Origin: a virus
Length of the DNA stretch: 64,000 nt
Virus record (IMG/VR): IMGVR_UViG_3300050016_000100
Span: 9,145-73,144 of that record
Reading direction: 5' to 3' (one strand)
This document shows, one piece after another, positions 2,326 through 43,799 of this stretch. Under the pieces are notes generated by a model. It was not told the DNA's origin and ran no database searches. It saw only the letters and a program-made list of their open reading frames with translations. Every line of letters begins with the position of its first letter. Positions within the stretch are counted from its first letter, which is position 1. The translations under genes were made by a program, and so were the position numbers.

Positions 2326-2880
2326 CTAAGCTGTGTTCGCCTTTGCGAACATCTTGAATGGAACGCCACCGGGCTCCCGGTACTCAGCCCACGGCCAGCG
2401 GCGCAGGATTGACTCGTCTTGCGCGCGGAGCAGCCCAGCTCGAGCCGCATCAGGACCAAGCGCAAAAATCCAACGATCTTTCACCGATTGCTTTTCGCCT
2501 TCGATCCATGATCCGTTGCCGGTCGGCGGCGGCCGGAGCCGATGCCACGTTGGTGCCCACCACCAATTACACGCGCGATAGAGCGCGCCAGTATGACCTT
2601 GGCTCGGATCACTATAGCTGACGATAGTTGTAACTTCTGGGCGAGACTGACGCAGCGCGCGGACAAACGCCGCCCACTGGCGACTGCCATCGTTCGGTTG
2701 CCTGCGCGTAAGGCACCAACGGACGAGCTCAAGCCAATGCTGCGGAAGCCGCCGAGCAGTTGGCGGTGCTACGATGATCGCCCCAAACTCGTCGTGCCAC
2801 GCCATGCCGCGATTAATCGGGCCGAGATAATGGTTCTCGGTCAGCAACCCGGCGACAGATCGACAGCTAGTCCAAGCCAC
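2326..2880 (-). CDS. Mom-like GNAT DNA modification enzyme
   Basis: ENHYLG, LELVRWC and VSYSDPSQGHTGALYRACNW motifs. Confidence 0.75.
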   Translation of the reverse strand: MAWTSCRSVAGLLTENHYLGPINRGMAWHDEFGAIIVAPPTARRLPQHWLELVRWCLTRRQPNDGSRQWAAFVRALRQSRPEVTTIVSYSDPSQGHTGALYRACNWWWAPTWHRLRPPPTGNGSWIEGEKQSVKDRWIFALGPDAARAGLLRAQDESILRRWPWAEYREPGGVPFKMFAKANTA

Positions 2881-2888
2881 AGTCGCTC

Positions 2889-4956
2889 CTATCTCGGCTC
2901 GTGCTGTTCGCACCATTTGTCCGCGTGCGTAAGTGGCACGGCGTCATTCCATTTCAGTCCGCGCCACTTTGCAAAGCAGATTGCCGCGTGTCCGGGCGAG
3001 AGTGGAGCAAAATGCCTACACGTCGCACAAGTTGGGGTTAGATAATCGTGCGCCACCTCTGCAGCCTCTCGATCTTGCGGTGCGCCGCGCATCAAATTCT
3101 CCTATTTCTTTAGCGCGTTCATAACGAAACGGGCCTGCCGTCGATACTCTTTCCTCTCACGCGCAGCAAAAGCCTCGCGCCAATAGCGGTCGCTAAACTC
3201 ACGGCGGCCTTTGTCGGTTAGACCGGCGCGGGCGAGTGCCTTAGCTGCAATCTCAGTTTGGCTTTCCTTACGCACCGATTTCCTCCTATATATCGTCGGA
3301 CTTATCTGGGCAAACGTGAGCCATCGTCTTTTCAAGACGCACAACGCGCTCTTCAAGTGACGGCTTATCGTAAGAATCATTTTCCGGCACAATCCGGTAG
3401 CCGATGTTGGCGGCGATCCGCGTGGCGAACACTTCCTGCGCTTCGCAGCGCAGTTTAAGAATTTCCGCTAATAGACCATTTTCGCCGTGCGTTAAGATCA
3501 CGAAATTCTCCTTTATCTCTTGACCGTATCAGCGGCAATCTTGAGCGCCAACGATATTGCGTTCCATTCGGTCTTGTTCATGTACCAAACCGGAGCGTTG
3601 CGCGGCAGCTTGCGTTGCCGGTCAAATTCTTTCTTGACCTTGAGATAGGTCGCACGGCTGAAATTGCGCCGTTCCTTTTTGTAAGCCGCCTTCTGCTTTG
3701 CGGTCCACGACATCAAATTCTCCTGCTCTGTTAGTCACGCTTTCCGAAATGCGTGTACATCCAACCGCGCTTAATCCACCTCAACCCTAGAGCATGGATT
3801 GCGGCCAATGCCTCCTTTTCCTACTCAGTTAACCGGCGGCGACCATCGGCTCGCACCAGGCAGTCGCCTCCCCTACAGCCATTTTAGCGCCACCGATCTT
3901 GTGTCTAAAATTGACATGCAAGCAACCGTCCACATGGCAGAAGCATAACGGTTCGGTGAGTGCGATTGAGTGCGGCTGAGCCGCGCCGGGTTCCTCCTAA
4001 GATGGGTGGTTGTATTGGAGAACATATTTTTTGGCTTCATCCTTGTTCACGTCCTTGCCATCCCAATCGAGGTGGATGGTCTCGCAATCAAGTTGGTCAA
4101 TTAGCTCGCACAGAATGAGCCGCCGATCAGCGTCAGGATGATCCATCGCGCAGGACATCGAGACACCATCCGCAAAAAACCGCTCAAGGATTTTGACGGA
4201 CTTATCGGTGAAGCCGCCCCATCCCTTGATCGTTCCCCACTTAAGCGTCAGCGACTCGGCCATCGTGATCAGCTCCTACTTTGTTAAGCGATAGCCGTAG
4301 CAATCGCGGCCCCAGAACAAGCGCGAGCCACATACGAAAGAGTCTGGTTCCGGCACTTCATGGCAATAATAGTATTTGGTGTCGGCCTCATTCGCAGACA
4401 TGGCATTGCTGATGCGCGTCGAAACTTTCTCACAGCTTTCCAGGCTATCGAAATCCGAGACGTTGACCCGTCGCTCCATCGGGGTGCCTGCAAGAAACAC
4501 CACCATGAGAAGATATTTCACGGTCACTCCTATGCCTCGTTGGCGATTACGGACAACTTGCTCGCTGCCGATATGGTGACGTGGACTTCCTCTTTGCGAT
4601 CTGGAAACGCCAAGCCAATCCACAAGGTCTTGTCGTCCATCATTTCCATGTGGACAAACGGACCAGCCGCGACAAGTTCATCGAACGCGCCAGCTTCGTC
4701 GGGCCGCGTAAAGATTTTGCCATCCACCCACGTCTTGTCGATATGTTTGCCCAAGTCGGCTCCTTTTTCACCAACTCATGTGCGGTAAGAAATGTGACGC
4801 GGCGATCAGCGCCGCAACGATCAGGCCGCCGATCACGTAGGGCGCAACGCCGGAAGTTTGACCTGGCGCGTCACTCATGCCAGAAGCGAACAGCCCAAGC
4901 AGCCCGAGAGCGAGTGAGAGTAACGCGACGATTCCTGCGATTATAAATGCAACCAT
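2889..4956 (-). other. Run of tiny leftward hypothetical ORFs (about 2889-3092, 3102-?, 3286-3501, 3513-3713, 3997-4263, 4276-4521, 4530-4754, 4768-4956)
   Basis: Most are preceded by an AGGAG RBS, often with the upstream stop codon embedded in it. Confidence 0.65.
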
Positions 4957-4971
4957 GTTTCAGTCTCCTGC

Positions 4972-5301
4972 TCATTCAACGGTTGCGTGAACTTTTGACG
5001 GCGCGAGCATCTTCACGAAGATACTGATGTCGGTTTTCTTCTCGATGACCGGGCGGAACGCTTCTGCCCAAAACCATTTCTCTTGATCCGGTGCGTCTCT
5101 GAATGGGACAATCGGATTCACAATCTCGGCCAAGTGAACATGCTGCCGACCATCCTTGCCGATGCGGGTATCGCGCACGGTGTAAATCAAACCGCGCTTC
5201 GGCGTGACGACTTTCCAATAGGCACACCATGCGGCCCAATCGAAGCCGGGGCTACCTTCGGTTCCGATGCACACTACTTTCTGTCCAACGGTGAAAGCCA
5301 C
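4972..5301 (-). CDS. Hypothetical protein (F.VGQKVVCI...EIVNP...FRPV..KTDIS family)
   Basis: RBS plus GTG; paralog at 30267-30602. Confidence 0.75.
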   Translation of the reverse strand: MAFTVGQKVVCIGTEGSPGFDWAAWCAYWKVVTPKRGLIYTVRDTRIGKDGRQHVHLAEIVNPIVPFRDAPDQEKWFWAEAFRPVIEKKTDISIFVKMLAPSKVHATVE

Positions 5302-5310
5302 GAAAATCTC

Positions 5311-5907
5311 CTAATCCAGTAGCCCGCGACTGCGAGCAACATTTTCAAGTTGATACAGAAACCACGTCCGCCCAGGTATCGGATCAATGCCGAGCTTTTT
5401 CATGGCCGCTCGGCGCGTGCGCCAGTTCTTGTACTTGACGCTTTCCTTGACGCGCATCAGGTCACGTAGATCGTTGTCCGAGTATCGTTCCGCAAGCGGC
5501 GGCGTGCCCTTGCGGCCGTTGAATATCGACTTGCGGCCCTGCGCCAGTCTGCGGCATATCTCGCAGCCGTCGCGCTTCATTGCCGCCCAATTCTTGCGGC
5601 TATCCCGGCCGTTGGCATCCACCACCCATCGCCCGCGCTTGTGGATCGCCGTCTTGGTCGTAACCAGGCTATCGGTCCGGTCGAGCTTGCTGCCCTTGTT
5701 CTCGGCCAGCATTGCCGGGACAGCCACCAGCGCCACGCGCGGCGCTCGCATCATCTTGGCGTAGTCCTCAAGATTGCCGTCTTTGCCGATTACAAACCAA
5801 TCTGTCGGCTCGAACCGCGCCAGCATCACCCGCTGCTTATCGTCGGGGAACCCCGAAACCGGGTTTATCAGGGCGATATATTCGGGTTTATCCACCATTT
5901 CCCGCAT
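5311..5907 (-). CDS. Degenerate serine-recombinase (resolvase)-like protein
   Basis: Pattern resembles a resolvase (PVS..Q...L; MR...V.LV; D.L....I..RG..V; G....GRKG.P) but the catalytic Arg residues are missing. Confidence 0.4.
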   Translation of the reverse strand: MREMVDKPEYIALINPVSGFPDDKQRVMLARFEPTDWFVIGKDGNLEDYAKMMRAPRVALVAVPAMLAENKGSKLDRTDSLVTTKTAIHKRGRWVVDANGRDSRKNWAAMKRDGCEICRRLAQGRKSIFNGRKGTPPLAERYSDNDLRDLMRVKESVKYKNWRTRRAAMKKLGIDPIPGRTWFLYQLENVARSRGLLD

Positions 5908-5922
5908 ATCATAAAACAGGGG

Positions 5923-5952
5923 TGGACAAATAGCAAGGCCCGTGCTTATATT
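5923..5952 (+). promoter_or_regulatory. Candidate sigma70 promoter driving the rightward island
   Basis: TGGACA-N18-TATATT in an AT-rich divergent region. Confidence 0.45.
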
Positions 5953-6057
5953 CTCCCCAGGCCCCACGGGTTGCCCATTATTGGGAACAACGGCCAAGCC
6001 GACTAGAAGCAAATCCGGTGCATCGTGGGAAAGCCGGGCTTCTAAAGGAAAACGCCG

Positions 6058-6162
6058 ATGAAACGATGGCTTTACTGGCGCGTCGTATGGCTGAATGACA
6101 GAACCAATGGCCGATATTTGCGGCTGCAATCGCGGCTGTGGATTGCTGGTTGGAGCGATTGA
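6058..6162 (+). CDS. 34-aa Trp/Arg-rich peptide (not in the ORF track)
   Basis: AAGGA RBS; MKRWLYWRVVWLNDRTNGRYLRLQSRLWIAGWSD; stop overlaps the next RBS. Confidence 0.45.
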   Translation: MKRWLYWRVVWLNDRTNGRYLRLQSRLWIAGWSD

Positions 6163-6176
6163 AGGAACAGGCCGCC

Positions 6177-6554
6177 ATGAAATTCGCCACGGATGCAGTG
6201 CTCGGAACCTCGACAGGCCGCCTTTTGGGCGACATTGGCGGCATCTACAAGGTGCTTTCCTTCATGATCGGGCGCGCCGCCTATACGCACGATCTAGCAT
6301 TCTATGGCCGTCAGGCCAGCAAGGCGCTCAAGGCCGCGCTCCCCGATCTGCCGATTGAGAAAGATGCCGGTCATGTGACCGGCGAGAATTACCGCGATTG
6401 CTTGGAAACGTGGGTCAAGCAATTCGGTCCTGAAATCGACCTGCCTGACAGCCTGCGCGACTGTCTCGCGGACGACAAGAGCGCGATGCAGACGCTTACC
6501 GAAATGGTCGATCCGAAAAAGATAATTCCGATCACCGTCGGTCGCGAGGAATAG
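6177..6554 (+). CDS. Hypothetical phage protein
   Basis: GAAGGA-N-GCCGCC-ATG start. Confidence 0.7.
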   Translation: MKFATDAVLGTSTGRLLGDIGGIYKVLSFMIGRAAYTHDLAFYGRQASKALKAALPDLPIEKDAGHVTGENYRDCLETWVKQFGPEIDLPDSLRDCLADDKSAMQTLTEMVDPKKIIPITVGREE

Positions 6555-6800
6555 GCCGGACTTCCGGCAACATGCGCCTCGGTGATGCAGGGGCAGAGTA
6601 AATCAGATGGTCAATCATCCTAACCGCAGCAAAACCAAACTTTTGAAGTTCAATGTTCTCAATCGTTATTCTGGCGAAGTTCAATTCACAGCCGAGATTG
6701 ATTGCGCGGATGATGCCAAGGCTTCGGTCAAACTTGGCTTGGCAGTAAAGTGGGCGATTGAAAGCCGGGCCGACCTGAGCGGGGCCGACCTGAGCGGGGC
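6553..6800 (+). repeat. Copy 1 of a ~250-bp inverted duplication (partner 8482-8742, minus strand)
   Basis: Near-identical leader plus 5' end of the MVNHPNRSK gene. Confidence 0.9.
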
Positions 6801-7251
6801 CGACCTGAGCGGGGCCGACCTGAGCGGGGCCGACCTGAGCGGGGCCGACCTGAGCGGGGCCAACCTGAGCCGGGCCAACCTGAGCGGGGCCAACCTGAGC
6901 GGGGCCGACCTGAGCGGGGCCAAAGACGCGGATTACGCCATCGCCTGCACGCGCATTTTACCTGATGGCGAGCTGATCGGCTGGAAAAAGTGCAAAGAGA
7001 GCGTCATTGTCAAACTGCGCATCCCAGAGGCGGCAAAGCGCAGCCATGCGTTCGGTCGTAAATGCCGCGCTGAATTTGCGGACGTGATCGAAGTCATTGG
7101 CGGGGAAATTGGCTACGCGCTACATGACGGAAAGACTGAATACAAACCCGGCCAGCGCGTGACCCCCGACAAGTGGGACGATAACTGGATTGACGAATGC
7201 TCCAATGGCATTCACTTTTACATCACCCGCGCCGAAGCCGAGGCGCATTGA
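6607..7251 (+). CDS. Pentapeptide-repeat protein with DUF5758-like C-terminal domain
   Basis: (A[DN]LSG)x10; C-terminal GWKK..KCRAE..ECSNGIHFYITRAEA. Confidence 0.85.
   Translation: MVNHPNRSKTKLLKFNVLNRYSGEVQFTAEIDCADDAKASVKLGLAVKWAIESRADLSGADLSGADLSGADLSGADLSGADLSGANLSRANLSGANLSGADLSGAKDADYAIACTRILPDGELIGWKKCKESVIVKLRIPEAAKRSHAFGRKCRAEFADVIEVIGGEIGYALHDGKTEYKPGQRVTPDKWDDNWIDECSNGIHFYITRAEAEAH
6766..6921 (+). repeat. 15-bp tandem repeat x10 (GGGGCCGACCTGAGC)
   Basis: Seen directly; encodes the pentapeptide repeats. Confidence 0.95.
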
Positions 7252-7335
7252 AGGATTAGCCCGCATCCGGGCGACACCTTCTGGCACCCGATCCATCCAT
7301 TGAATGTATGGTCACACCATTCTATTTTTGAATTT

Positions 7336-7452
7336 TCACCCATCGGTTCTCTCCAGATAGGCAACGGCGGCACGAATCAAATCGACGCGATCTTCAAACT
7401 GTCCGAGGCCTACATTGCAGCGACTGCATATCAACCCGCGAACTTTGCCAGT
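7336..7452 (-). pseudogene. C-terminal fragment of an endonuclease VII-like gene
   Basis: TGKVRGLICSRCNVGLGQFED...AVAYL; the N-terminal CxxC/DHDH part is absent. Confidence 0.6.
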
Positions 7453-7466
7453 ACCATCTCGCCCAT

Positions 7467-7649
7467 TTATTTCGGCCTCCCACATTCCGGACAGCCGTGG
7501 ACCCAGACATCGGCGATCTTGCGTGATGACCATCCCTCGCGCTGCGCGGCCGGCCAGACCTCGGACCACTCGCCGCTCACGCCTTCGAACGTCGTGTCGC
7601 AGGAATCGCACTCGATAACAATTTTGTTATATTGCCGGTCCACGCTCAT
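7467..7649 (-). CDS. Small Zn-ribbon protein
   Basis: CDSC...GW...CPEC. Confidence 0.65.
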   Translation of the reverse strand: MSVDRQYNKIVIECDSCDTTFEGVSGEWSEVWPAAQREGWSSRKIADVWVHGCPECGRPK

Positions 7650-8212
7650 TTTGCCTTCCTCCTGAACGGTCGCTGGCCCTTCCCCGGCAGGCGGTTGGCG
7701 CTGCGCAGCGGCCGCGATGTAATCTGCTTTACCTGGGACGGCCTTTTCGGGAATCCACTTGCTTTTCGCCGAGCTTGGCCTTTCGCCCTGTTCTTCGCGA
7801 TCCGCTTGTTCTTCCGCGCCAGCCCGAGATCGCTGTGCTGTCCGTGCTGGCCCCGGACGCGGGTCTCGACGTCGTGGTCGGCCTCGGGCAGCCAGAACAG
7901 GTGCGCGGGCGAGTTCGCCGGCGGCCTGTAGCCGACGATGATGCCGCCGCGTTTAATTTTCTCCCGGTTTACCAGCGCGGGACGGTGATGCAGTTCGGCC
8001 TTCTGGTTTCCGAACAGCAACCGCAAAAACATATCGAGCTGCTCGCGCAGAGACGATCTTCCCTTCCAGTGTTCGCGATCTACGAATGAACGGAAGACCG
8101 AGGCGGCGCGTTCTCCGTTTTCATGCGCGAACGACTTGGCAGCGTCGAACTGCCGCTCCGCGACATGCACGCGGATCTTGAGCGGAATGTGCGGGCGCGG
8201 CAGGCGGCTCAT
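7646..8212 (-). CDS. HNH-like phage protein (degenerate)
   Basis: RPHIPL, ELHHRPAL, NSPAHL...H motifs; basic C-terminal tail. Confidence 0.5.
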   Translation of the reverse strand: MSRLPRPHIPLKIRVHVAERQFDAAKSFAHENGERAASVFRSFVDREHWKGRSSLREQLDMFLRLLFGNQKAELHHRPALVNREKIKRGGIIVGYRPPANSPAHLFWLPEADHDVETRVRGQHGQHSDLGLARKNKRIAKNRAKGQARRKASGFPKRPSQVKQITSRPLRSANRLPGKGQRPFRRKAK

Positions 8213-8688
8213 GATTTCCCCCTATGAATCGCGTCGACCATGCTCAGCCGAACGGATGGTCCTAGCTTCGGTGTCTTTCGATTTACTTTGCGAGGCCGAT
8301 AGACAAAAGTTTTCGAGGCATCCGCTGCGTCCTCGGCCTGCACGATCTCGGCCCACGCCTTTCCATCGCGCCGGAATAGCGGGAAGTCCGCATGGTCCCC
8401 ACCGACGATGTAGATCGGATAACCCTTGCTCTTGCCGGATGCGTTTAGGCGAAGGCCCCATCCGACGCCGGTCGGGTCGATCCGGCTCAGGTTGGCCCCG
8501 CTCAGGTCGGCCCCGCTCAGGTAGGCCCGGCTTTCAATCGCCCACTTTACTGCCAAGCCAAGTTTGACCGAAGCCTTGGCATCATCCGCGCAATCAATCT
8601 CGGCTGTGAATTGAACTTCGCCAGAATAACGATTGAGAACATTGAACTTCAAAAGTTTGGTTTTGCTGCGGTTAGGATGATTGACCAT
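8209..8688 (-). pseudogene. Chimeric ORF: pentapeptide N-terminus + ATPase fragment + unrelated tail
   Basis: N-terminus identical to the 6607 gene; IDPTGVGWGLR segment identical to 11979-12046. Confidence 0.8.
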
Positions 8689-8742
8689 CTGATTTACTCT
8701 GCCCCTGCATCACCGAGGCGCATGTTGCCGGAAGTCCGGCCT
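8482..8742 (-). repeat. Copy 2 of the inverted duplication
   Basis: Reverse complement of 6553-~6800; one GAC/TAC difference and only 3 pentapeptide units. Confidence 0.9.
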
Positions 8743-8934
8743 CTACTGACTGAAAACGCGGGTGGCGATATTTGCGGGGATCGTGAAGGGCCATGGTGCA
8801 GCGGAGATAAAAGCACAGATAGCAAAGCTCTCGCCATTTCTGATGCAGACGGGGCGATTGTAAAAGTAGCCGGTGCCGACAGCCCAACCAAAAATGTATA
8901 TCCAAAACATCGTTATTGCTGCTCGATCCGACAC
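8743..8934 (-). CDS. Small membrane protein
   Basis: Two hydrophobic segments; RBS motif upstream. Confidence 0.55.
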   Translation of the reverse strand: MSDRAAITMFWIYIFGWAVGTGYFYNRPVCIRNGESFAICAFISAAPWPFTIPANIATRVFSQ

Positions 8935-8940
8935 GGCGGG

Positions 8941-9120
8941 CTAATCCTTCAAATTGCGGATGGTCTGAGCGATGTCGTGGCCGATGGTTGGTTCGCCTAA
9001 TACTCTGCCGCGCTGATACGCTGTCTCGGCGCATCGTTCCCGCTCTTTTGCCCTAACGGCGTCAAAGCGATCACCAACGCGCTCCATCGCTTCTTTCAGA
9101 ATGTTAGGCGTATGTGTCAT
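8941..9120 (-). CDS. Hypothetical protein (ERERCA family)
   Basis: Paralog at 28113-28289. Confidence 0.65.
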   Translation of the reverse strand: MTHTPNILKEAMERVGDRFDAVRAKERERCAETAYQRGRVLGEPTIGHDIAQTIRNLKD

Positions 9121-9134
9121 ACATATCCCTTTCG

Positions 9135-9600
9135 GGCCTCTATATCCAAGTTGATTACGCGAGAAGCCCCTTGAGAGCTTCAGCGAATTTTCTCGTTTCT
9201 TCGTTATCCAGCTCGCGATGACAAAGTTGCTCGCGCTTGCCGTCGTTTTGCGCGGTCGGCTCTGTCCGGTAGACGCGGAAGGACGTGCGGCCCATCGCGC
9301 AAAGAGTAGTGGAAAACTCAATCTCCACCGATCCCCAACGCATCGGTCCCGGCTCACCTTTCCCGGCTTCGGTCCCGCAATAAAGTGAAACGCTTGCCAT
9401 GTGTGGGTAATCCTCTAGGTGTGAGCGTGACTTTTCAACCATGCCAAAACTTCGACAACGGCGGGGTCTGGTTTGTCGGGCCATAGTACCGGGTCAAAGG
9501 CTCCGTAACCGCGAATGACCTGATGCTGCGCCTCATATCGCGAAAGTGTCTCGAAGCATTCGAGGAACCGGGCAATTTGCGCTGCGGTTGGCATGGCGGC
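9135..9600 (-). repeat. Copy 1 of a 466-bp direct duplication carrying two ORFs (9415-9594, 9155-9400)
   Basis: Matches 11473-11938; one mismatch seen. Confidence 0.95.
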
Positions 9601-9601
9601 C

Positions 9602-11468
9602 CTAATCCTTCAACTGATCGAGTTGTTCTTGCAGGCGATCGCGCTGGGCAAAAGCGTCACCCAATCCACAGGCATAGGGAACGCCCCAAGGCGTCTCTGT
9701 GTTCAGCGGATTCATCTTGAACTGCCGAATATCGCCCTCAAAGACCAGGGTGAAGGCTTCGGTAAATTCCTTTTTATCGCGCGGATCGAGCGGATGGCTT
9801 GGCATCGGGCCTTCTCCTACAACGTGACGCCGAGCTTTTTTAGCTCGGCCTGAATGATCTTTTTGGCGGCGGCGACGATCAACGCGCCGGTCTTGCAATC
9901 GACCACGACCGAAGCATCGTTGTTGTCCACATATCGGTCGCTGGCTAGACCGCCGACTAGAAACTCAAGACCGCGATCAGTGTCATGCTTGCGGCAGGCG
10001 CGAGCGAGTTTGTTCCACCCGCCGAGAGCATCAACCAAAAATCCAGGCCGATAAGCTTCGTTCGCTTTCACGGCGGCCTAATCCTCTAAAACATGCGCGG
10101 CAAAATAGTTGCCAGCCATACAGTCAGCTTGAGACGAATAACCGCTGCGGGTTTTTCCAGTATGGGAAATGACACGACCACCCGGCATCGGCCAATCTGG
10201 ATCATAGCTAACGACCGTGCGCGACTTCAATTCGCGAGAGCCATAGCCCTTGAAGCGGTATGTCTTGCCCACCTGAATGTCGCGCGACTCCATTTGCGGG
10301 CCCTTTCTAACAGGGTTGGCTGACGCGAATTTCGTCAGCGTTGGAGTAGTCGCACAGGTGCAATTCCCAACTCTCGATAGGCTCCATTAGGGCCGCCATC
10401 GAGGCGAGAAACCCACTATCGTTAAAACTGTATTGCTTGTTCTGTTCAGGGTGTGCCGCCAGCCATTCGTCACGCAGCCGCTCAACGTCAATTTCCGCAC
10501 GCGCCAGGAATACTCCCTGCACCATAAAGTCGCTGTAGCAGCCCGAAGTCACGGTAAAGGTCGCGCCCTTTGGGATCGGAACTTGCTTGCTCATTTCCGG
10601 GCTATTTTGACTGATCGAGGCAGAATGTCATAATAATGCGATGCTCATTCCCAACATGAAGTTTTTTGCCTTCGGCTATACAGCCGTCCTCAGTACGGAA
10701 CCCCGGCACTGAACTAATGGCTGCGGCTGGACTAGAATTGTAAAGTCCGCCCTGCGCGAAAGCGATCACAACTAAAATCCATGTCATAGCGGCCTCTCTC
10801 CTTCAATCGAGGGGGTCTGGAATTAGACCAGTTATTTCGCTGTACGTCGACAGCATCATAAGCGGCGGCACTAGAAATATGTCCCACCCGCCATCGTCGC
10901 CTCTAAGCATTGCGATAAGACAGAGAAGGCCCCAGATCGGGAACGCTACGATGTCGAAAACAATCCCGAGCGGCACCCATAACAAGGCCAGCGCCAAGAA
11001 CGGAAGCGATAAAATGAAAATTGCGGATACTCGGGCGGCGTTTTTAAGTGACCAATCCATCGGGGCTATTCCTCTAGGCCGCTACTTGGTTCGGGCAGAC
11101 AAACTTGCAATCGAAAAACCGCTCGATGTTTGGCCGTTCATAAATCTGCAATTCAGCGTGGGGAAACACCGGCCCGACCCATCCGCCGCCCGGCGGCGGC
11201 CCCTCCTTGCGCCAGCGATACGTGCTCTCCATGACCTTGCGCTCTTGCCGGACCGCGCCACACTTTTTGCATTTCGTCACGGCGGCTATCCTGACAATGC
11301 CGTGTCGATCTTATCGAGCAGCGGCTTTAGGGTTTGAGAGTTTTCGGAAAGTAGCTGTTTCTCGACCGCCGCCAACCACGCCCGCGCTTCCACCAACGCC
11401 TCTCGGACCTGCGTATAAGCCTCGCAGGGCTCCGCGCCATCTGGCATCATGCAACCGGGTAACGACAT
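9602..11468 (-). other. Run of tiny leftward hypothetical ORFs (9602-~9805, 9817-10071, 10078-10293, 10307-10594, 10602-10787, 10803-11060, 11074-11280, 11286-11468)
   Basis: Tightly packed, with shared RBS-spacer motifs. Confidence 0.7.
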
Positions 11469-11472
11469 TTCC

Positions 11473-11938
11473 GGCCTCTATATCCAAGTTGATTACGCGA
11501 GAAGCCCCTTGAGAGCTTCAGCGAATTTTCTCGTTTCTTCGTTACCCAGCTCGCGATGACAAAGTTGCTCGCGCTTGCCGTCGTTTTGCGCGGTCGGCTC
11601 TGTCCGGTAGACGCGGAAGGACGTGCGGCCCATCGCGCAAAGAGTAGTGGAAAACTCAATCTCCACCGATCCCCAACGCATCGGTCCCGGCTCACCTTTC
11701 CCGGCTTCGGTCCCGCAATAAAGTGAAACGCTTGCCATGTGTGGGTAATCCTCTAGGTGTGAGCGTGACTTTTCAACCATGCCAAAACTTCGACAACGGC
11801 GGGGTCTGGTTTGTCGGGCCATAGTACCGGGTCAAAGGCTCCGTAACCGCGAATGACCTGATGCTGCGCCTCATATCGCGAAAGTGTCTCGAAGCATTCG
11901 AGGAACCGGGCAATTTGCGCTGCGGTTGGCATGGCGGC
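11473..11938 (-). repeat. Copy 2 of the 466-bp direct duplication
   Basis: Offset 2338 bp from copy 1. Confidence 0.95.
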
Positions 11939-12187
11939 TTCTTCGCCACAGTAAAAGCAATGCCTCATTTTCGGTGCCATCGGATAACCCTTGCTCTTGC
12001 CGGATGCGTTTAGGCGAAGGCCCCATCCGACGCCGGTCGGGTCGATGTTGCAGACGCGTTCACCGGCTGCGAGTGCCGGCTCGATGATCTGGCTCTTGGC
12101 GACCGATGTCTTGCCGCTTCCGTTCATGCCGAGGATGGCGATGTGCTTCTTCAGCGCGGACTCCGGAATCAAGTTCTTCGCCATCAT
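11753..12187 (-). pseudogene. Triple chimera: HerA/DUF87-like ATPase N-terminus + MAPKMRHCFYC fragment + duplicated MPTAAQ gene
   Basis: Walker A GMNGSGKT and IDPTG motif, then abrupt in-frame switches at 11980 and 11938. Confidence 0.75.
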
Positions 12188-12504: not shown

Positions 12505-12857
12505 GGGACCAGCTCCGCCGCGGCTTTGATACCTGCATCGGTCAGCTTCCAGACGATGGCCGGACTCCCGCTCGGTGCCGGACGGTGATCTTGTGTCGCG
12601 AAGACGAGGCCGGCATCGCGGAGTTCGCCACGCCGTTTGCCGGCGCTGGTCTGCTGGCGTCCTATGGCGTCCCCGAGTTCGAAGTCGGTTAGGCCGGACG
12701 GCGCATTGGCAAGCGCGAGAAGTGCCTGCTTGCGGACCGTGCGGCGGTTCGACCGGTTGCGGCTCGCTGTCTGGTGGCTGGTCTCCGGATCAGTCGTGCG
12801 GGCGCCGGGACCAACCGAGAAAAGGTCCGGAGCTAGTTTCTCGTGTGTCCGGCTCAT
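12501..12857 (-). CDS. Winged-helix DNA-binding protein
   Basis: ARTTDPETSH; GLTDFEL...KRRGELRDAGLV. Confidence 0.7.
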   Translation of the reverse strand: MSRTHEKLAPDLFSVGPGARTTDPETSHQTASRNRSNRRTVRKQALLALANAPSGLTDFELGDAIGRQQTSAGKRRGELRDAGLVFATQDHRPAPSGSPAIVWKLTDAGIKAAAELVP

Positions 12858-13399
12858 GCCGACCTCCCTGCCTCTTTTTTCAATGTCGCGCGAGTCGTCC
12901 CGGTCATCGTCGCGAGTAGGTCGAGGACGTCGCGCTTTGACTTCTCGAAGGGCTCCTTCGCCATCGATGCCGCGCTCTGCGACTTGGCGGTTCTGACGAT
13001 AACCTTCTTCCCGCTCAGATGGATTCTAGCGTACTCGTCGACGCTCCGAATGAAGGTCGCCAGATTCCGCGCGTGCGATGGCGTGTCGCAATCGAAGTCC
13101 TTCTCGTCGAACCATCCGGTCTCGATCAGCGCCCACTTCCTTAAGTGCTCCGCAGAAGGCCATCGCGCCGCGATTGATTCCGGAAGGTTGTGCCATGCGT
13201 CGTCGATGGCGGCGAAGTATTGGTTATGACTCGCGCGGGATCGCGCCTCGAGGACGACGAGTGGGTAATCCTCATTCTCGTGAAACTGGCGCCGCGCGAC
13301 CTTTTCATATCGGGTCTCCGGCATCATAACGAGCTTGAGTTCGCCGCTATCCGGGAGCGCCGCCCATGTCCACCGAAAGACAACCGGGACCATCCTCAT
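12854..13399 (-). CDS. NinB/DUF1367-like recombination-associated protein
   Basis: RS.ASHNQYFA, EHLRKWALI, KSQS..SM motifs; located beside exo/ERF. Confidence 0.5.
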   Translation of the reverse strand: MRMVPVVFRWTWAALPDSGELKLVMMPETRYEKVARRQFHENEDYPLVVLEARSRASHNQYFAAIDDAWHNLPESIAARWPSAEHLRKWALIETGWFDEKDFDCDTPSHARNLATFIRSVDEYARIHLSGKKVIVRTAKSQSAASMAKEPFEKSKRDVLDLLATMTGTTRATLKKEAGRSA

Positions 13400-14145
13400 C
13401 GCGGGATCGCCTCCTTCGCGACGTCGGCCGGTTTGCGCTTCCCGCCGAGCATCGAGCGGACCTTCTCGACGAGCTGCTTCAGGTCGTAGTCGAAGCGCTC
13501 GATCTCGCTCTCGATCTGCTTGATAAAGGCATCGTCGCGCGCGACGGTAAAGACGAGGGCGCCCGGCATCCCGCGGTAGAAGATCACGAGGTCGACCTCC
13601 TCGAGCTCGGCGACGAGCATCGTCCCCTGGACCTGCGCGCGGTGCTCGGGAGGAATCCCACCGCGCATGAGCTGCTCGATCATCAGGCGCGGAATCTGCG
13701 TCTTGATCTCGAGGCCCTTGGCTCTCTTCGTGAAGTCGTTGACGACGAAGCCGTCCGGCGACGCTCCGACGATCTGCCCGCGCGGGAGCTTGTTACGAAC
13801 GAAGCCGACCCGCTCGACCTCGACGCCTCGGGTGAACGCGTAGTGTTCCCGCGCCTCGGCCTCCATTATCTTGCCGCGCTCCATCGCGGGGCCGGACCAA
13901 TTCTCGGCCGGCTCGCCGGTCAAGAGTTCGCCCGCGAGGTCGTAGAGGAGTTTGCGCCGGGTCAGGCTCTCGCCCCCGTCCTTCCCGGACGCCATGATCG
14001 TCCCGAAGTTCGAGGCGGTCGGGAGGCCGAGCCGGAGTTTTATCCATTCCTCAGAGCCTTGTTCGCAATAGAAAATCTCAGGCGAACTCTTCGTAGAGTT
14101 CTTTGCGTTTGGCCGCATAGATGAGGCGAGCTTCTTCTCGATCAC
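13396..14145 (-). CDS. YqaJ/lambda-like exonuclease
   Basis: QGSEEW..LR.G..TAS, GASPDG, GLEIK, QVQG motifs. Confidence 0.9.
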   Translation of the reverse strand: MIEKKLASSMRPNAKNSTKSSPEIFYCEQGSEEWIKLRLGLPTASNFGTIMASGKDGGESLTRRKLLYDLAGELLTGEPAENWSGPAMERGKIMEAEAREHYAFTRGVEVERVGFVRNKLPRGQIVGASPDGFVVNDFTKRAKGLEIKTQIPRLMIEQLMRGGIPPEHRAQVQGTMLVAELEEVDLVIFYRGMPGALVFTVARDDAFIKQIESEIERFDYDLKQLVEKVRSMLGGKRKPADVAKEAIPR

Positions 14146-15044
14146 TTCTTCGCCTCCGGCGCCTTCGCGCGTGCGGCAGCGTTCGCCTCGTAGCTCCGGA
14201 TCGCCGCGACCGTCTCATCGAACCGCCCGCGCGGTAGTTTCGCGAGGCCGTCGATCTCCGGGTGGCCCTTCGGGCGCGTCTTGTTCATGTGGACGACGAG
14301 CCGATCCTTCGGGCAGCCGGCAGCGTCGGCGAGCGCGATGATCTGCTCTAGCTCGTCTTGCAGGAGCGGGTCGCCAAGGACGACCGGACGCCCGCTCTTC
14401 TTCCCGTCGTCATCTTCGCCCTTGGTGACGATATTGAGGACCGCGCAAGCGGTGTGCCGTTTCGCGTAGCTGACGGACGATGCCCATGCCTGGGCGTTGT
14501 TCTTGCTTCCGGTCGTATCGGCACCGAGGTCGAAGTAGCAGGATTCGTCGGTGTGGCCGTGGCCGATCAGAATGGCAGTGACGCGGACGCGACCATCGGG
14601 TGCGGTCCCGATCCGATGCCGAAGGCCAAAGCCGTACTTGTGCAGTATCGGCTTGATCACCGGCATCATAATTTCCCATTTCGCATACGGGGTGTCCTGC
14701 GACACTTCGCCTGTCCGCTTGCCCGTCGCGTCCTTCTCCCGGACAACAATCGCTCCGCTTTTCGTGACGACCGGGAGCTCCGGTTGCATTTCGATCATCG
14801 CGTGATCGAACGCATCGCGCGCGGCGCGGTTAAGTACCCGCTCTTGGAAGTCAAGGATCGGACCAAGGGTCGCTGCTGCTGCCGGGTTAACCGCAAGCCG
14901 CTCAACCATCGCAAGGAAGTCTCCGCCGAACCGGACCATCGCTATCCGATCAGGTGGAAGCGTCGCGACCTCCTGCTTAGCGACCGGTGGGCTTTCGAAT
15001 AACCAGTCCTCGTCCACCTTCTCATTCACCTGCACCTTCGTCAT
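14142..15044 (-). CDS. erf: ERF-family single-strand annealing protein
   Basis: YA.WE..IKP.L..GF; Q..ASSVSYAKRH....LNI..EDDDG. Confidence 0.85.
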   Translation of the reverse strand: MTKVQVNEKVDEDWLFESPPVAKQEVATLPPDRIAMVRFGGDFLAMVERLAVNPAAAATLGPILDFQERVLNRAARDAFDHAMIEMQPELPVVTKSGAIVVREKDATGKRTGEVSQDTPYAKWEIMMPVIKPILHKYGFGLRHRIGTAPDGRVRVTAILIGHGHTDESCYFDLGADTTGSKNNAQAWASSVSYAKRHTACAVLNIVTKGEDDDGKKSGRPVVLGDPLLQDELEQIIALADAAGCPKDRLVVHMNKTRPKGHPEIDGLAKLPRGRFDETVAAIRSYEANAAARAKAPEAKK

Positions 15045-15064: not shown

Positions 15065-15373
15065 TTATTCTTCGACCTCGGCCATCGGCCATCGATCGGC
15101 CGAGAAAGTAAACTTCGCGTCGATGCTCGGACCCTTTCGGTCGCCATTGAGTGGTGGCGCACCGTTCGCATCGATGAAGGCTGCGAGTGGCGCCACTTGG
15201 GTCGCCCGGACATAGCCGATGTGCTTGCTCTGCGCCCATATTTGAACCGCGTTCCGGTCGAACTTGTTCGACGGCTCGCGGATCAGCGTCAGTGGCTCGC
15301 CCTTCGGTAGCGATGCGACCAAGGCTTCGCTGCCGCGGTGTTTCATGCCGACGATCGAGTAGAGGCCTTTCAT
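15065..15373 (-). CDS. HIRAN domain protein
   Basis: IVGMKHR, L.REPSNKFDRNAV, IGYV. Confidence 0.85.
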   Translation of the reverse strand: MKGLYSIVGMKHRGSEALVASLPKGEPLTLIREPSNKFDRNAVQIWAQSKHIGYVRATQVAPLAAFIDANGAPPLNGDRKGPSIDAKFTFSADRWPMAEVEE

Positions 15374-16712: not shown

Positions 16713-16878
16713 CGGTCTCTCCCTTGATGATCTTGATCGCCTTGTTGTAACCCTCGATCTCGCCTTCGCCGCGAGCGATCTCAAGCATCCCGGCGAGCAG
16801 GTCGATCGCGACGCCCGTCGAGCCGCCGCGTATGTAGTCGATGTTGTCCTTCGCGCGCTGCTGCGCCCAGTCGCTCAT
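16696..16878 (-). CDS. Hypothetical protein
   Basis: AAGGAG RBS; overlaps neighbours. Confidence 0.6.
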   Translation of the reverse strand: MSDWAQQRAKDNIDYIRGGSTGVAIDLLAGMLEIARGEGEIEGYNKAIKIIKGETDGRKN

Positions 16879-17453
16879 CGGTTTTCTCCTTCGTTAAAAG
16901 CAGCCGAGGACGCGAGACCGGTCCCGGCCGCTTCCCCCACGTTGGGGCTATCGCGAAAGCCGCGCTTGAACTCGCGCAGCCTGATCTTCTCCGGCGCCGA
17001 CAGGTGGCCGGCCTCGGTGTTGCAAAGGACGCAAGCGAGGAAGATGTTCGAGATGTGGTTCGGGCCGCCGTGAGCCTGCGCGATCAGATGCTCGCGCGTC
17101 CGCGCTTCGGGCGTTCGGAACGCCATCCCGCAATAGAAGCACTCGTCGCCGTCGCGAGCGATCAGCGTCTCGATCACGGGTGGGTTGCGCTTATTGCGCT
17201 GAAGGAAGGCATCGGGCGGCCGCTGCACAGCGAGCCGGAAGTCAGGGTCGTTCTTCTTGAACGCTTCCCACGCCGCCTGCGCCTGCCCGGTGAACGTCCG
17301 CTGACCCGTCAGCTTTTGATAAATGATGGACGTCACGCCGCCGCCCTTGAAGCGGACGACCTCCCACTCGTTCGTCGTGACGAGAAGCTCGGCTCCCCGG
17401 CCGACGAGCCACGCCTTGAAATTGTCGACCTCGTCGCGCTTGCGAGACTTCAC
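16875..17453 (-). CDS. HNH endonuclease
   Basis: RDGDECFYCG..TREHL...GGPNHISNIFLACVLCN. Confidence 0.85.
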   Translation of the reverse strand: MKSRKRDEVDNFKAWLVGRGAELLVTTNEWEVVRFKGGGVTSIIYQKLTGQRTFTGQAQAAWEAFKKNDPDFRLAVQRPPDAFLQRNKRNPPVIETLIARDGDECFYCGMAFRTPEARTREHLIAQAHGGPNHISNIFLACVLCNTEAGHLSAPEKIRLREFKRGFRDSPNVGEAAGTGLASSAAFNEGENR

Positions 17454-23985: not shown

Positions 23986-24685
23986 GGGAATTATACGCTT
24001 GACTCCCGTGCCGTTTTGGGCTAGATTTTGAGCCTGAAAAGAGGTGTAAATCATGAGTAAATCCACTGTTTCGACCTTCGAGATTTTCGCCATGTTTCCC
24101 GACCAAGAGGCCGCCCGGACCTACCTTGAAGGCCAGCTTTGGCCCAATGGTCCTACATGCCCGGTCTGCGGCCTTGGCGAGCGCATTACAGCGCGCAAGG
24201 GCGGCTTCTTCAGGTGCAATCAATGCCAAGAGGACTTTACCGTCCGCACGGGCACCATTTTCGAGCGCAGCCACATTCCGCTGCACAAGTGGCTTTACGC
24301 CATGTATCTGCTGCTCACCGCCCGCAAGGGAATTTCCAGCCTTCAACTCTCGAAAGAGATCGGCATCCGCCAAGGCTCGGCGTGGTTCATGCTTCACAGA
24401 ATCCGTGAAGCCTGCGGCGGCGACCTGACCAAGCTGCAAGGCATCGTCGAAATCGACGAAACTTACATGGGCGGCATCGAAGGCAACAAACACAAATCCA
24501 AGAAGCTGAATGTCGGCGGCGGCACGGGCGGCAAGGCCGCCGTCCTCGGCATGAAAGAGCGCGGCAAAGGCGGTCGCACTAAGGGCTTCAAGATCGAAGC
24601 AACCGACGCGCAAACGATCCGGGACGTGATCGTGCAGAACGTCGAGGTTGGTTCGACGCTGCACACCGATGAACACCTTGCCTAT

Positions 24686-25969
24686 CATGCCTATCCGGTT
24701 GACGCACACAGGTACTAGATGTTGATGGAACACACCGAGATTTTGGCGGAAGGCATCACCCAATATGTAGGGGATTGCCGCGACGTGCTGCGCACGTTGC
24801 CGCCCGAGTCCGTGCATTGCTGCGTAACCAGCCCGCCCTATTTCGGCCTGCGGGACTATGGCACCGCGACATGGGAGGGCGGAGACCCTACTTGCGACCA
24901 TCTGAGGCCCGCCGCGCACGGTTACAAGCCGTTTGAAACCTCTACCCTCGGACCTAAAGCCGATGGAATTTCCGCCGACAATTCCGCCCATGCCGATGCC
25001 GTCAAGCGCCAGCAATACAAGGGCACTTGCTCCAAGTGCGGCGCTCACAGGATCGATAGTCAGATCGGTCTTGAGCCGACGCCCGCCGCCTTCGTTTCCG
25101 AGTTGGTAGGTGTGTTCCGCGAGGTCCGGCGCGTTCTCCGCACGGACGGGACGCTGTGGCTCAACCTTGGGGATTGCTACTGCGGAGCAGGGTACTCGAA
25201 TCACACGTTGGAACGGAACGGTGCGGCGCAACGCGCGGACGGCGGCAAACAAAAGCACGGCACCGTGTGCCTGGATGGCCTCAAATCCAAGGATTTGATC
25301 GGTATCCCGTGGATGGTTGCCTTTGCCCTTCGTGATGATGGCTGGTTCCTGCGTTCCGACATCGTGTGGAACAAGCCGAACCCAATGCCGGAAAGCGTGA
25401 CCGACAGGCCGACACGCTCCCATGAATACCTGTTTTTGTTGACCAAATCGGCACGGTATTTTTACGATCACGAAGCCATTGCCGAACCCGCCACAATGAA
25501 GCCGCAGGCTCGGTTGACGCCGCGCGATTTTGTGAACGGGAAAGACGCTGGCAGGGCCGCGCACCGCCGTCCCGATTATCGAATCCGTGACGATGCCGAA
25601 CAGGAAAACGCGACCCGCAATAAACGATCCGTTTGGGAGGTCACTACCAAGCCTTTCGCGGGTGCCCACTTTGCAACCTTCCCGCCCGACCTGATCGAGC
25701 CGTGCATCCTCGCTGGATGCCCTGCGGATGGCACTGTGCTCGATCCTTTCGGCGGGGCTGGCACAACAGCCCTTGTCGCTGATCGCCTGCACCGCCGCGC
25801 CATTCTGATCGAACTGAACCCCGAATATGCGGCGATGGCCGAACGGCGTTTCCGGTCGGACGCGGGAATGTTTGCGCGTGTCGAAACCGTCAACACTACA
25901 GGTAGACCATGAAGGGAACACTAGATGTGGTGTCATTTTCGACCTGTGTGCGTCAACCGGATAGGCATG
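24686..25969 (+). mobile_element. Non-autonomous IS1595-derived cassette (MIC) carrying a DNA methyltransferase
   Basis: Perfect 28-bp TIRs (24686-24713, 25942-25969); 8-bp TSD TTGCCTAT (24678-24685, 25970-25977). Confidence 0.92.
24725..25912 (+). CDS. N4-C/N6-A DNA methyltransferase (beta class)
   Basis: VTSPPY motif IV precedes DPFGGAGTT motif I. Confidence 0.92.
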   Translation: MEHTEILAEGITQYVGDCRDVLRTLPPESVHCCVTSPPYFGLRDYGTATWEGGDPTCDHLRPAAHGYKPFETSTLGPKADGISADNSAHADAVKRQQYKGTCSKCGAHRIDSQIGLEPTPAAFVSELVGVFREVRRVLRTDGTLWLNLGDCYCGAGYSNHTLERNGAAQRADGGKQKHGTVCLDGLKSKDLIGIPWMVAFALRDDGWFLRSDIVWNKPNPMPESVTDRPTRSHEYLFLLTKSARYFYDHEAIAEPATMKPQARLTPRDFVNGKDAGRAAHRRPDYRIRDDAEQENATRNKRSVWEVTTKPFAGAHFATFPPDLIEPCILAGCPADGTVLDPFGGAGTTALVADRLHRRAILIELNPEYAAMAERRFRSDAGMFARVETVNTTGRP

Positions 25970-26277
25970 TTGCCTATGCCGGAATGGGCGGGCTGTTTTT
26001 CAATCACGAAACGATCAATCACGGCAACGGCGAGTATGTCCGCGACGGCGTGACGACCAACTCGATTGAGTCCGTGTTCGCCGTTCTTAAGCGCGGGATC
26101 ATCGGCGTGTACCACCACGCCAGCAAAAAGCACATTGGCCGTTACGTCGATGAATTTGCTTTCCGCTTGAACGAAGGCAACGTGCAGCACCACACCATGA
26201 CCCGCCTGCAAAGCCTTGTCGGCGCAGTCAAGGGCAAACGGCTGACCTACAAAACATTGACGGCATAGGAGAACACA

Positions 26278-42955: not shown

Positions 42956-43191
42956 TGACCGATGATCTCGAAACATTGATACGCAATAGGCAGAACGAAT
43001 TGCGCGACCCGCGACGATTCACCCATCCGGTGATTGTTATCGACGAACGCTCGTTGACAGAGCGAGTCGGCGACTGGATCGACGAACACGAATACGGATT
43101 GTTGAACTGGTCGATTGTGGCCACAGGCGCGGCTCTGATTCTCATTGTCGTCTGTCTGCTAGTAATGATCAGCGTCAGAGTTGTCAGTTGA
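42955..43191 (+). CDS. Small protein with C-terminal TM helix
   Basis: Hydrophobic C-terminus; overlaps neighbours. Confidence 0.55.
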   Translation: MTDDLETLIRNRQNELRDPRRFTHPVIVIDERSLTERVGDWIDEHEYGLLNWSIVATGAALILIVVCLLVMISVRVVS

Positions 43192-43799
43192 AGACGATCG
43201 ACCTGATCTCCTTCGAGGCCGACATCGCGGAAGCGTTCAATCGCGGCGAGATACGCGCGCCGGTCCACCTTGCGGGCGGAAACGAGGAACAGCTCATCGA
43301 GATATTCGAGGGCGTTCGGCCGATTGACTGGGTCTGCTGCTCGTGGCGATCGCATTACCACTGCCTGCTCAAAGGCGTCCCACCGGAACGGCTGAAGGCC
43401 GACATCATCGCGGGCCGGTCGATAACGCTGACCTATCCGGAATACAGGATCGTCTCGTCGGCAATCGTCGGCGGCGTCCTACCGATTGCGCTCGGCCTCG
43501 CCTGGTCTATCGCGCGGGCGGGCGGCGATGAGCGGGTATTCGTCTTCGCTGGCGACATGACGTCGCTCGGCGGCATGTACGCAGAATGTAAACGCTATGC
43601 CGAGGGGTTCAACCTGCCGGTATTCTTCGTCGTCGAGGATAACGGCATCTCGGTCTGCACGGATACGAAAGACACGTGGGGCGAGCGGACGACGGTCTCA
43701 AAGCCTGAGGGAGTGCGCGCCGCGAATGGTGCGACGATGAGGTATCGCTACGTGCTGCCGTGGCCCCATGCCGGAGCAGGGAAGCGAGTTCAGTTTTGA
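43188..43799 (+). CDS. TPP-dependent enzyme, E1-alpha-like (minimal)
   Basis: HL..GNE, RSH, IVGG, GDM...VEDN TPP-binding motif. Confidence 0.85.
   Translation: MKTIDLISFEADIAEAFNRGEIRAPVHLAGGNEEQLIEIFEGVRPIDWVCCSWRSHYHCLLKGVPPERLKADIIAGRSITLTYPEYRIVSSAIVGGVLPIALGLAWSIARAGGDERVFVFAGDMTSLGGMYAECKRYAEGFNLPVFFVVEDNGISVCTDTKDTWGERTTVSKPEGVRAANGATMRYRYVLPWPHAGAGKRVQF

Follow-up and report, generated by a model that had tools for sequence, protein, structure and literature searches.

Linkers of stop codon, ribosome site, and start codon in a phage accessory gene array: gene borders that may act as joints for shuffling genes

Introduction

Whether the joints of mosaic phage genomes form at short conserved sequences on gene boundaries, or form at random and are sorted afterward by selection, is an old and unsettled question. 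It is raised again by an array of very small genes at positions 2889-12187 of a stretch of 64,000 nucleotides (hereafter the window, whose numbering is used throughout), which represents bases 9145-73144 of the 73,144-bp virus record IMGVR_UViG_3300050016_000100 (CheckV completeness 100%). An earlier note on the window had described about 30 tiny open reading frames (ORFs) separated by recurring linkers, and had proposed that gene-sized units already equipped with a ribosome-binding site are shuffled at these linkers in a cassette-like manner. The description holds. Our gene model gives 31 ORFs in 2326-12187, of which two are duplicate copies and three are fragments or fusions, and most of the ORFs have no Pfam or PHROG family. 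The array makes up 12.7% of the genome, lies directly downstream of an early operon, and has its far end at a Mom-like gene (2326-2916); it is the hyperplastic, dispensable tail of early operons in a tailed phage of about 73 kb, with its genes arranged head to tail. The question is what the linkers between these genes do. We argue here, with about even confidence, that they are translational-coupling modules that serve in addition as preferred short-homology joints for gene-sized pieces.

Two Families of Linkers Confined to the Array

Two families of linkers were found, and both are confined to the array: type A, TAGGAGAWTTTSRTG, and type B, TTGAAGGATTAG(G)SCCGCCRTG with its relatives (Table 1). 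The coordinates that the earlier note had given for the linker motifs are all correct. Across the whole 73,144-bp genome, the four copies of AGGAGAWTTYSRTG (type A; AGGAGAWTT...) all lie in the array (3090, 3499, 3711, and 5299; minus strand), as do all six copies of the type B core RGGA-N2-7-CCGCY-RTG (five sites that had already been noted, including the plus-strand copy at 6159-6179, and a sixth at 10785) and all four copies of RGGATTAG. An orphan linker at 7248-7264 agrees with 8936-8952 over 17 of 17 bases, just as had been noted. The exact type B pattern, AGGATTAGN{0,1}SCCGCCRTG, has three matches and none in each of 100 shuffled sequences, and the type B 16-mer GAAGGATTAGGCCGCC, with at most three mismatches allowed, has seven matches, five of them linkers, against a shuffle mean of 0.68 and a maximum of 4. 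Type A is weaker when taken alone: a looser test returned 7 matches where 2.64 were expected, and 3 of 100 shuffles reached 7.

Such motifs could be no more frequent than ordinary ribosome sites, which the earlier note had named as the observation that would speak against its proposal. The 18 bases upstream of each start codon were compared pairwise, and pairs with at least 13 shared bases were counted. These numbered 14 of 378 within the array, 1 of 2628 among the 73 other genes, and 1 of 2044 between the array and the rest, indicating that the array linkers are not ordinary ribosome sites; they are specific to the array and far more alike than the ordinary ribosome sites of the genome.

Each module brings together the stop codon of the upstream gene (mostly TAG), a Shine-Dalgarno (SD)-like sequence (AGGA or GGAG), a spacer that is fixed as AWTTTS or GGCCGCC, and the start codon of the next gene. 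The stop lies within or beside the SD-like core, and the following start is 5-15 nt away. Upstream genes had been said to stop often within the linker, and this is so for those ending in LKD (8941-9120 and 9602-9805), LED (10078-10293), and LLD (5311-5898). TAG is the stop codon of 19 of the 28 array genes and of 14 of 73 genes elsewhere (Fisher p = 8e-6), an excess that arises because TAG belongs to the module, as TAGGAG in type A and as GATTAGGCC or TAGAGGA in type B. In two upstream genes the letters TTGAAGGA are read as TTG-AAG-GA(T), giving Leu-Lys-Asp; in others the same letters are read as xAT-TGA, an in-frame stop. Conservation of the linkers is at the nucleotide level. RNA structure was not detected at the linkers, 18 junction contexts folding no better than shuffles (z -1.3 to +1.9), and promoter- or terminator-like matches occur near shuffle expectation and away from the linkers.

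The linkers are the only sequence common to otherwise unrelated neighbors. Array proteins are not paralogous, since the only significant protein pairs are recent duplicates, and for want of such similarity the paralogous expansion of one gene together with its linker was rejected as an origin of the array. The two linker families follow operon membership, and the repeated use of type B is a property either of the array or of whatever donated its low-GC blocks, and not of the gene families. These blocks have a guanine-plus-cytosine (GC) content of 54-55% (Table 1), compared with 60-62% in the backbone. Gaps between array genes measure 5-34 nt, and intergenic DNA amounts to only 4.9% of the type B array. 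Neither an Rfam family nor a tRNA gene was found inside the array.

One stretch of the type A array departs from this compact arrangement. Its sole long gap (283 nt; 3717-3996) has no convincing ORF and includes, at 3909-3881 on the minus strand, a promoter-like TTTAGA-17-TAAAAT; it may represent an internal promoter or an unrecognized small RNA.

Repeat Edges and Broken Genes

The array carries three repeats (Table 1). D2 is a direct repeat of two genes, and both of its edges lie between a ribosome site and a start codon: the upstream edge immediately precedes GCCGCCATG, six bases 5' of the start codon, and the downstream edge immediately follows TAGAGGCC, right after the SD-like GAGGCC of the next gene. 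The D2 unit therefore spans spacer to spacer. The outer edge of the inverted repeat I1 reads TAG/(A)GGCCGG (here and below a slash marks the break) and falls directly after the stop codons of the DUF7736 gene and of ORF 8743-8934; at the inner edge the repeat is fused, within a gene, to a piece of the ATPase. The two copies of D3 flank a 3.5-kb block, 8482-11978, that contains nearly all of the type B linkers, and at one D3 edge, CCGAT/G, ATPase codon 69 is joined to the ATG of a 16-codon remnant ORF via a shared CCGAT. Both edges of D2 and the outer edge of I1 thus lie 0-20 nt from stop or start codons, and one edge of D3 lies at a start codon.

The earlier note had placed most duplication breakpoints at GCCGCC-ATG, CCG-ATG, or AGGCC. 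By our count, at least 7 of about 13 classifiable junction sides lie at a linker, stop, or start; the remainder lie in genes, and shuffling is accordingly not restricted to linkers. The in-gene junctions comprise the pentapeptide-ATPase fusion at 8481/8482, the end of the ATPase after about codon 100, and the end of the DUF5131 gene at codon 28. Three of the junctions that truncate genes have a linker or a start codon as their other partner, as in ATPase codon 69 joined to ATG and DUF5131 codon 28 joined to the orphan linker. This is the best hint that linkers are favored as such and not only kept by selection, since junctions that destroy a gene and still use a linker are not predicted by selection for intact genes alone.

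The ATPase, a protein of about 580 amino acids, has been reduced to fragments, with codons 1-69 and about 48-100 kept in the window. Among 60 non-self homologues, whose N-terminus is 71-94% identical, 56 have 543-627 amino acids. A simple 3.5-kb insertion into an otherwise intact ATPase of 137 amino acids was rejected on this account, because most of the gene is missing here. Protein P0113, encoded on another contig, carries the first 40 or so residues of the ATPase fused to the body of a DUF5131 protein. It represents a deletion that arose independently and brought together the two genes truncated in the window, and the ATPase-DUF5131 interval thus seems to be a recurrent hot spot in this phage group.

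The pentapeptide gene contains 11 tandem 15-nt units (6763-6927), about three of which are retained in the inverted partial copy (8483-8530). The difference implies either that the number of pentapeptide repeats has changed or that the fusion occurred within them.

The repeat structure was compared with one public sequencing run (X1, labeled peat metagenome), which holds 97% of the sampled words of the record and is possibly its source sample, so that it does not constitute independent data. Contigs assembled independently from X1 stop exactly at the repeat edges, and each unique junction is bridged by a contig. Sequence depth is 35.1 in D2 (a single 466-nt Logan contig) and 42.7 in I1 (Logan contig 6553-6796), compared with 18.6-27 in the unique flanks. 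The lack of contig cover at 11618-11851 is due to the collapsed repeat. Contigs and depths fit the repeat structure of the record.

Table 1. Features of the array and its surroundings in the window, with the junction that follows g193 in four phages.
Feature	Position	Strand	Remarks
Type A linker	3090..3104; sister copies 3499-3513, 3711-3725, 5299-5313	-	TAGGAGAATTTGATG
Type B linker	8932..8952; relatives 9592-9612, 10069-10088, 10785-10802, 11058-11073, 11278-11291	-	TTGAAGGATTAGCCCGCCGTG
Type A array	2889..5310	-	Nine small ORFs downstream of g193; GC 53.9%; no Pfam/PHROG family
g193	5311..5898	-	Conserved 195-aa protein heading the type A operon
Plus-strand block between type B linkers	6159..7264	+	Linker 6159-6179; orphan linker 7248-7264
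DUF7736 gene	6177-6554	+	In plus-strand block
Pentapeptide/DUF5758 gene	6607-7251	+	In plus-strand block
Truncated DUF5131 gene	7265..7343	-	Ends after codon 28; abuts inverted orphan linker; PF07505 profile positions 1-25 of 243
Backbone genes g60z and g188	7467..8212	-	g60z 7467-7649, g188 7646-8212; homologues in L004 and L017
Chimeric ORF	8209..8688	-	Pentapeptide 5' copy (I1 arm 8742-8482), ATPase codons 48-~100 (8481-~8340), unrelated tail
Type B array	8482..11978	-	3.5 kb between the two 68-bp ATPase copies D3; GC 54.9%
D2, copy a	9135..9600	-	466-bp direct repeat; genes X59 (9415-9594) and X81 (9155-9400)
D2, copy b	11473-11938		One internal mismatch at 9207
I1, inverted repeat of ~260 bp	6553-~6812; inverted copy 8742-~8483	+ (first copy)	5' part of pentapeptide-repeat gene
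D3, perfect 68-bp repeat	8414-8481 and 11979-12046		68/68 identical; ATPase codons 48-70
Fusion ORF	11753..12187	-	ATPase codons 1-69, 16-codon remnant ORF, X59 copy b
NinB-like gene	12854-13399	-	Pfam/PHROG scans
YqaJ-type exonuclease	13396-14145	-	PF09588 1.2e-19; PHROG 149
Erf annealing protein	14142-15044	-	PF04404 2.8e-10; PHROG 155
Junction after g193, window			TAGGAGATTTTCGTG
Junction after g193, L017			TAGGAGAATTTTGTG
Junction after g193, L018			TAGGAGCCGCCATG
Junction after g193, L020			TAGGAGCCGAGTCGTG

Homology to Related Phages

Mapping breakpoints among relatives, a check that the earlier note had called for, gave a similar picture in the few relatives found: the ends of homology at g193 and at the DUF7736 gene lie in the spacer between ribosome site and start. 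Homologues of g193 with 56-62% identity occur in the loci L017, L018, and L020, and in all four phages the gene ends in ...GLL(D/E)-TAG-GAG and is followed by a different gene in each. Divergence 3' of g193 begins in or right after TAGGAG, with DNA homology stopping at 5308 in the comparison with L018 and at 5296 in that with L017. A promoter-like TTGCTA-17-TATGAT 5' of the gene (5936-5908) is kept in all four. L017 has a second type A-like linker elsewhere. The DUF7736 gene shows 81% DNA identity to L021 from 8 nt 5' of its ATG (AGGCCRCCATG) and ends in TAGGCCG in both phages, after which L021 continues with CCATG and another gene.

Among homologues of ORF 8941-9120, identity extends to ...IRN(L) and is lost beyond it, with the LKD end present in one of three, and the homologues of ORF 9602-9805 have the LKD end in none of ten. 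The four viral loci that carry the gene of ORF 9602-9805 contain no other array gene and no such linkers.

No match to the array was obtained by megablast in 50,697 phage records, and a full-length ATPase homologue, compared with these records by tblastn, gave one distant match (38.5%). Relatives sought through the NinB-like gene numbered two (49%), with almost no downstream DNA, and g188 led to one locus; none was found through ORF 4972-5301 or ORF 10307-10594. A search with the g193 alignment added one new viral locus, one metagenome locus, and no genome locus, and one with the alignment of ORF 9602-9805 returned the four viral loci and two contigs of metagenome-assembled genomes that are uninformative for host.

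Linkers as Probable Coupling Modules and Possible Recombination Joints

The position and spacing of the modules make tight translational coupling or re-initiation along the operon their most likely primary role. That 9-17 bases recur at many borders, together with the GC-rich spacer of type B, suggests that they are also preferred short-homology joints. Gene-sized pieces would be duplicated, inverted, inserted, or replaced at the linkers, and a moved piece would keep or regain a working ribosome site. In the simplest mechanism, short-homology joining would take place at the linkers, either through annealing by Erf and YqaJ or by template switching during replication. The phage does encode a recombination module, an annealing protein of the ERF family next to a YqaJ exonuclease, 1.2 kb upstream of the array. 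According to the available text of one study, Erf-type recombinases recombine diverged DNA efficiently and the Erf/Exo pair of phage D3 is as efficient as Red on diverged substrates (PMC3945230).

Several observations weigh against this interpretation. Microhomology at the joints reaches at most 6-17 nt, which is below the 23-27 nt given in the available text as the minimal segment for efficient pairing by Red-beta (PMC3945230). Roughly half of the junction sides lie within coding sequence; the cassette-like shuffling proposed earlier is partly supported, having in its favor the array-specific linkers, the unrelated genes, the repeat and homology edges in the spacer, and the nearby Erf and YqaJ genes. 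Only some six to eight rearrangement events are available, and the relatives are both few and distant. Two of five related records contain the type B motif, a single time each, and a scan of IMG/VR for the exact type B pattern gave 12 loci with one match each and none with two or more, which was judged to be about chance level. Alternative joints or circles were not seen in the X1 contigs, which derive from one run and are blind to circles and minority orders.

Alternative Explanations

The main rival explanation is that the linkers are purely expression signals, an initiation or coupling element that may be bound by a factor of the phage or the host, as proposed for the start-associated sequences (SAS) of mycobacteriophages, and that breakpoints are seen at them only because, among random illegitimate recombinants, those with intact genes and ribosome sites survive. 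In its favor are the register in which stop, SD-like core, and start are fixed, the single orientation with respect to transcription, and the unstructured initiation regions of the 18 contexts; the in-gene junctions demonstrate that breaks happen elsewhere too, and in the available text the SAS share nearly the same properties (PMC3203893). We consider this explanation possible yet doubtful, in that the three truncating junctions still have a linker or start codon as partner and that duplicates with 99.8-100% identity have left little time for selective filtering. A GC-rich GGCCGCC spacer would, moreover, not be expected from efficient initiation alone. Since the events are young, have edges in linkers, and in some cases destroy a neighboring gene, targeting can be separated from selection in this array. 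Joints at linkers may be favored mechanistically rather than only kept by selection.

An unlikely explanation, though one that goes further than preferred joints, is that the linkers are the recombination sites of an integrase-free phage cassette system, whose units are bounded 0-6 nt 5' of start codons. Units would be excised or copied, perhaps as circles (such as one composed of D2 and the eight genes of 9601-11472). Erf and YqaJ, or a linker-specific nuclease, would then insert them at other linkers through annealing of the GC-rich spacer, and an arriving gene would enter a translationally coupled operon. Like integron cassettes, the array genes are small, mostly promoterless, unrelated, and in one orientation, with recurring boundary elements; unlike integrons, the array has no tyrosine integrase, attI, or structured attC sites, and its boundaries are ribosome-site linkers. 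The array is not an integron. The earlier note had likewise seen no integron integrase or attC site, and no Phage_integrase-type Pfam match was obtained in the 84 ORFs scanned, a set that begins after the first 9.1 kb of the record. Attempts to find attC-like structures in the array gave none: the gaps are of 5-34 nt, the 18 contexts are unstructured, and the borders carry no inverted repeats.

It is improbable that a dedicated site-specific nuclease or recombinase acts just 5' of the start codons to make this a true cassette system. Fragment ends do lie 0-6 nt 5' of starts (GCC/GCCATG, GCCCGC/CGTG, CCG/ATG, and GAGGCC/GGAAATG), and there are two candidate enzymes, an HNH protein (16875-17453) and the resolvase-like g193. 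The g193 family is small, with 42 representatives at E <=0.001 among 1.84 billion proteins, and has no Pfam family. Its top Foldseek match, 2r0q_C, belongs to the small serine recombinases and is weak (E = 7e-3), having been obtained with a low-confidence model (mean pLDDT 54). Matches of the C-terminal part, which is preceded by GRP, are homeodomain-like and also weak, and a T5orf172/MUG113 domain is fused in 3 of 23 family members scanned. Set against these likenesses, the Resolvase Pfam family is matched by none of four members at E <=10 and by none of 23 at E <=0.01, and the candidate nucleophilic serine, expected in the N-terminal part, lacks conservation in an alignment of 32 sequences. 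In addition, relatives of g193 occur without repeated linkers, and neither inverted-repeat nor hairpin sites were found at the linkers.

Equally, we think it very improbable that the duplications and the inversion are assembly artefacts, strain variants threaded into one contig, leaving only the motif as real. The record is indeed metagenome-assembled, its ends overlap with one mismatch, and in X1 the unique parts of the 3.5-kb insert have a depth of 18.6-20.3 compared with 22.8-27 in the backbone. As described above, X1 contigs break at the repeat edges, the repeats are at about double depth, and the unique junctions are bridged (with the proviso that X1 is possibly the source), and the D2 copies differ at one base.

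That the linkers are operators for a phage repressor, spread through the early operon and oriented with transcription like the stoperators of L5 (a contrasting case in PMC3203893), would account for a repeat that is asymmetric and keeps one orientation at gene borders. It is nevertheless very improbable, given the register fixed to the start codon, the SD core, the two different families that follow operon membership, and the absence of any copy from the divergent regulatory region at about 17.6-18.3 kb or from the vicinity of the g193 promoter.

Relation to Known Systems

The closest known system is the shuffling mediated by PeSLs in T4-type phages, and the linker motif itself is most like the SAS. 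By analogy, the array may be viewed as a ribosome-site-sized variant of both, that is, of known modular shuffling and of start-associated sequences.

In the available text on PeSLs (PMC2839356), these are short conserved intergenic modules beside small orphan genes in hyperplastic regions, as in the array, and recombination between modules explains insertions, deletions, and replacements in which the moved gene carries its own expression signal. Rearrangement endpoints in the repeated module were found here also, namely both edges of D2, the outer edge of I1, one edge of D3, and the ends of homology to relatives. PeSLs differ in being units of about 100 bp with a promoter and a terminator that includes a stem-loop (PMC2839356), whereas the array gaps of 5-34 nt contain only stop, SD, spacer, and start, and no promoter with stem-loop terminator lies between array ORFs. 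Mini-circles have been demonstrated for PeSLs in the same text, and none was seen for the array in the X1 contigs.

The SAS of Cluster K mycobacteriophages are described in the available text as asymmetric repeats of about 13 bp with an SD core, situated a few bases 5' of start codons and in one orientation (PMC3203893). They precede non-structural genes only, stand before unrelated families, sometimes include the upstream stop, and are essentially absent from other phages, all in common with the linkers. The likeness is one of analogy, as the linkers do not have the published Cluster K consensus and come from another host lineage. The SAS are also, in that text, not tied to recombination breakpoints (PMC3203893), whereas the array has two families in one genome and recent duplications that end inside linkers.

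With the Rad52-like recombinases, as far as the available text describes them, the phage shares an Erf-family annealing protein and a YqaJ-type exonuclease, and differs in the shorter homologous stretches that its linkers offer, 6-17 nt (PMC3945230).

If the linkers are recombinogenic, they would constitute a minimal, translation-level counterpart of PeSLs and a simple rule by which new small genes are loaded into expressed phage operons, and gene borders may in this way function as joints in the shuffling of phage genes. Arrays of this kind could in that case be sought by means of the motif, which could also guide the design of insertion sites for engineered phages.

Genome Context

Pfam and PHROG scans identify a tailed phage, with a portal, a tail sheath-like DUF3383 protein, baseplate J, several DNA methylases, and a NusG-like protein. 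The ends of the record (G000:C1:1-200 compared with 72945-73144) overlap by about 165 nt with one mismatch, so the genome is probably circularly closed or terminally redundant; the record is classed as linear. In the leftward early operon the HNH gene is followed by HIRAN (15065-15373), Erf, the YqaJ exonuclease, the NinB-like gene, two small genes, and then the array. No prophage relative was found in genome searches.

Positions 1502-1584 on the plus strand, just past the Mom-like gene that ends the array, match the small RNA family suhB/mmgR of Rfam (RF00519; 68.6 bits compared with a gathering score of 41), and L017 has a stretch of 76% identity. The phage therefore carries a copy of this alphaproteobacterial regulatory RNA family, which hints at an alphaproteobacterial host.

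An element of 1284 bp at 24678-25977 has terminal inverted repeats of 28 nt that match each other perfectly (24686-24713 and 25942-25969) and is flanked on both sides by the 8-bp direct repeat TTGCCTAT. Its cargo is an N6/N4 DNA methylase ORF (24719-25912), and it splits an IS1595-type transposase ORF into 24053-24718 and 25909-26268. It looks like a cargo-carrying non-autonomous transposon. Within the virion-gene module, a plus-strand cluster at 43188-47856 encodes E1 dehydrogenase-like and transketolase-like proteins, a DegT-type aminotransferase, an NAD-dependent epimerase, and a B12-binding radical SAM protein, and may serve sugar or nucleotide-sugar modification.

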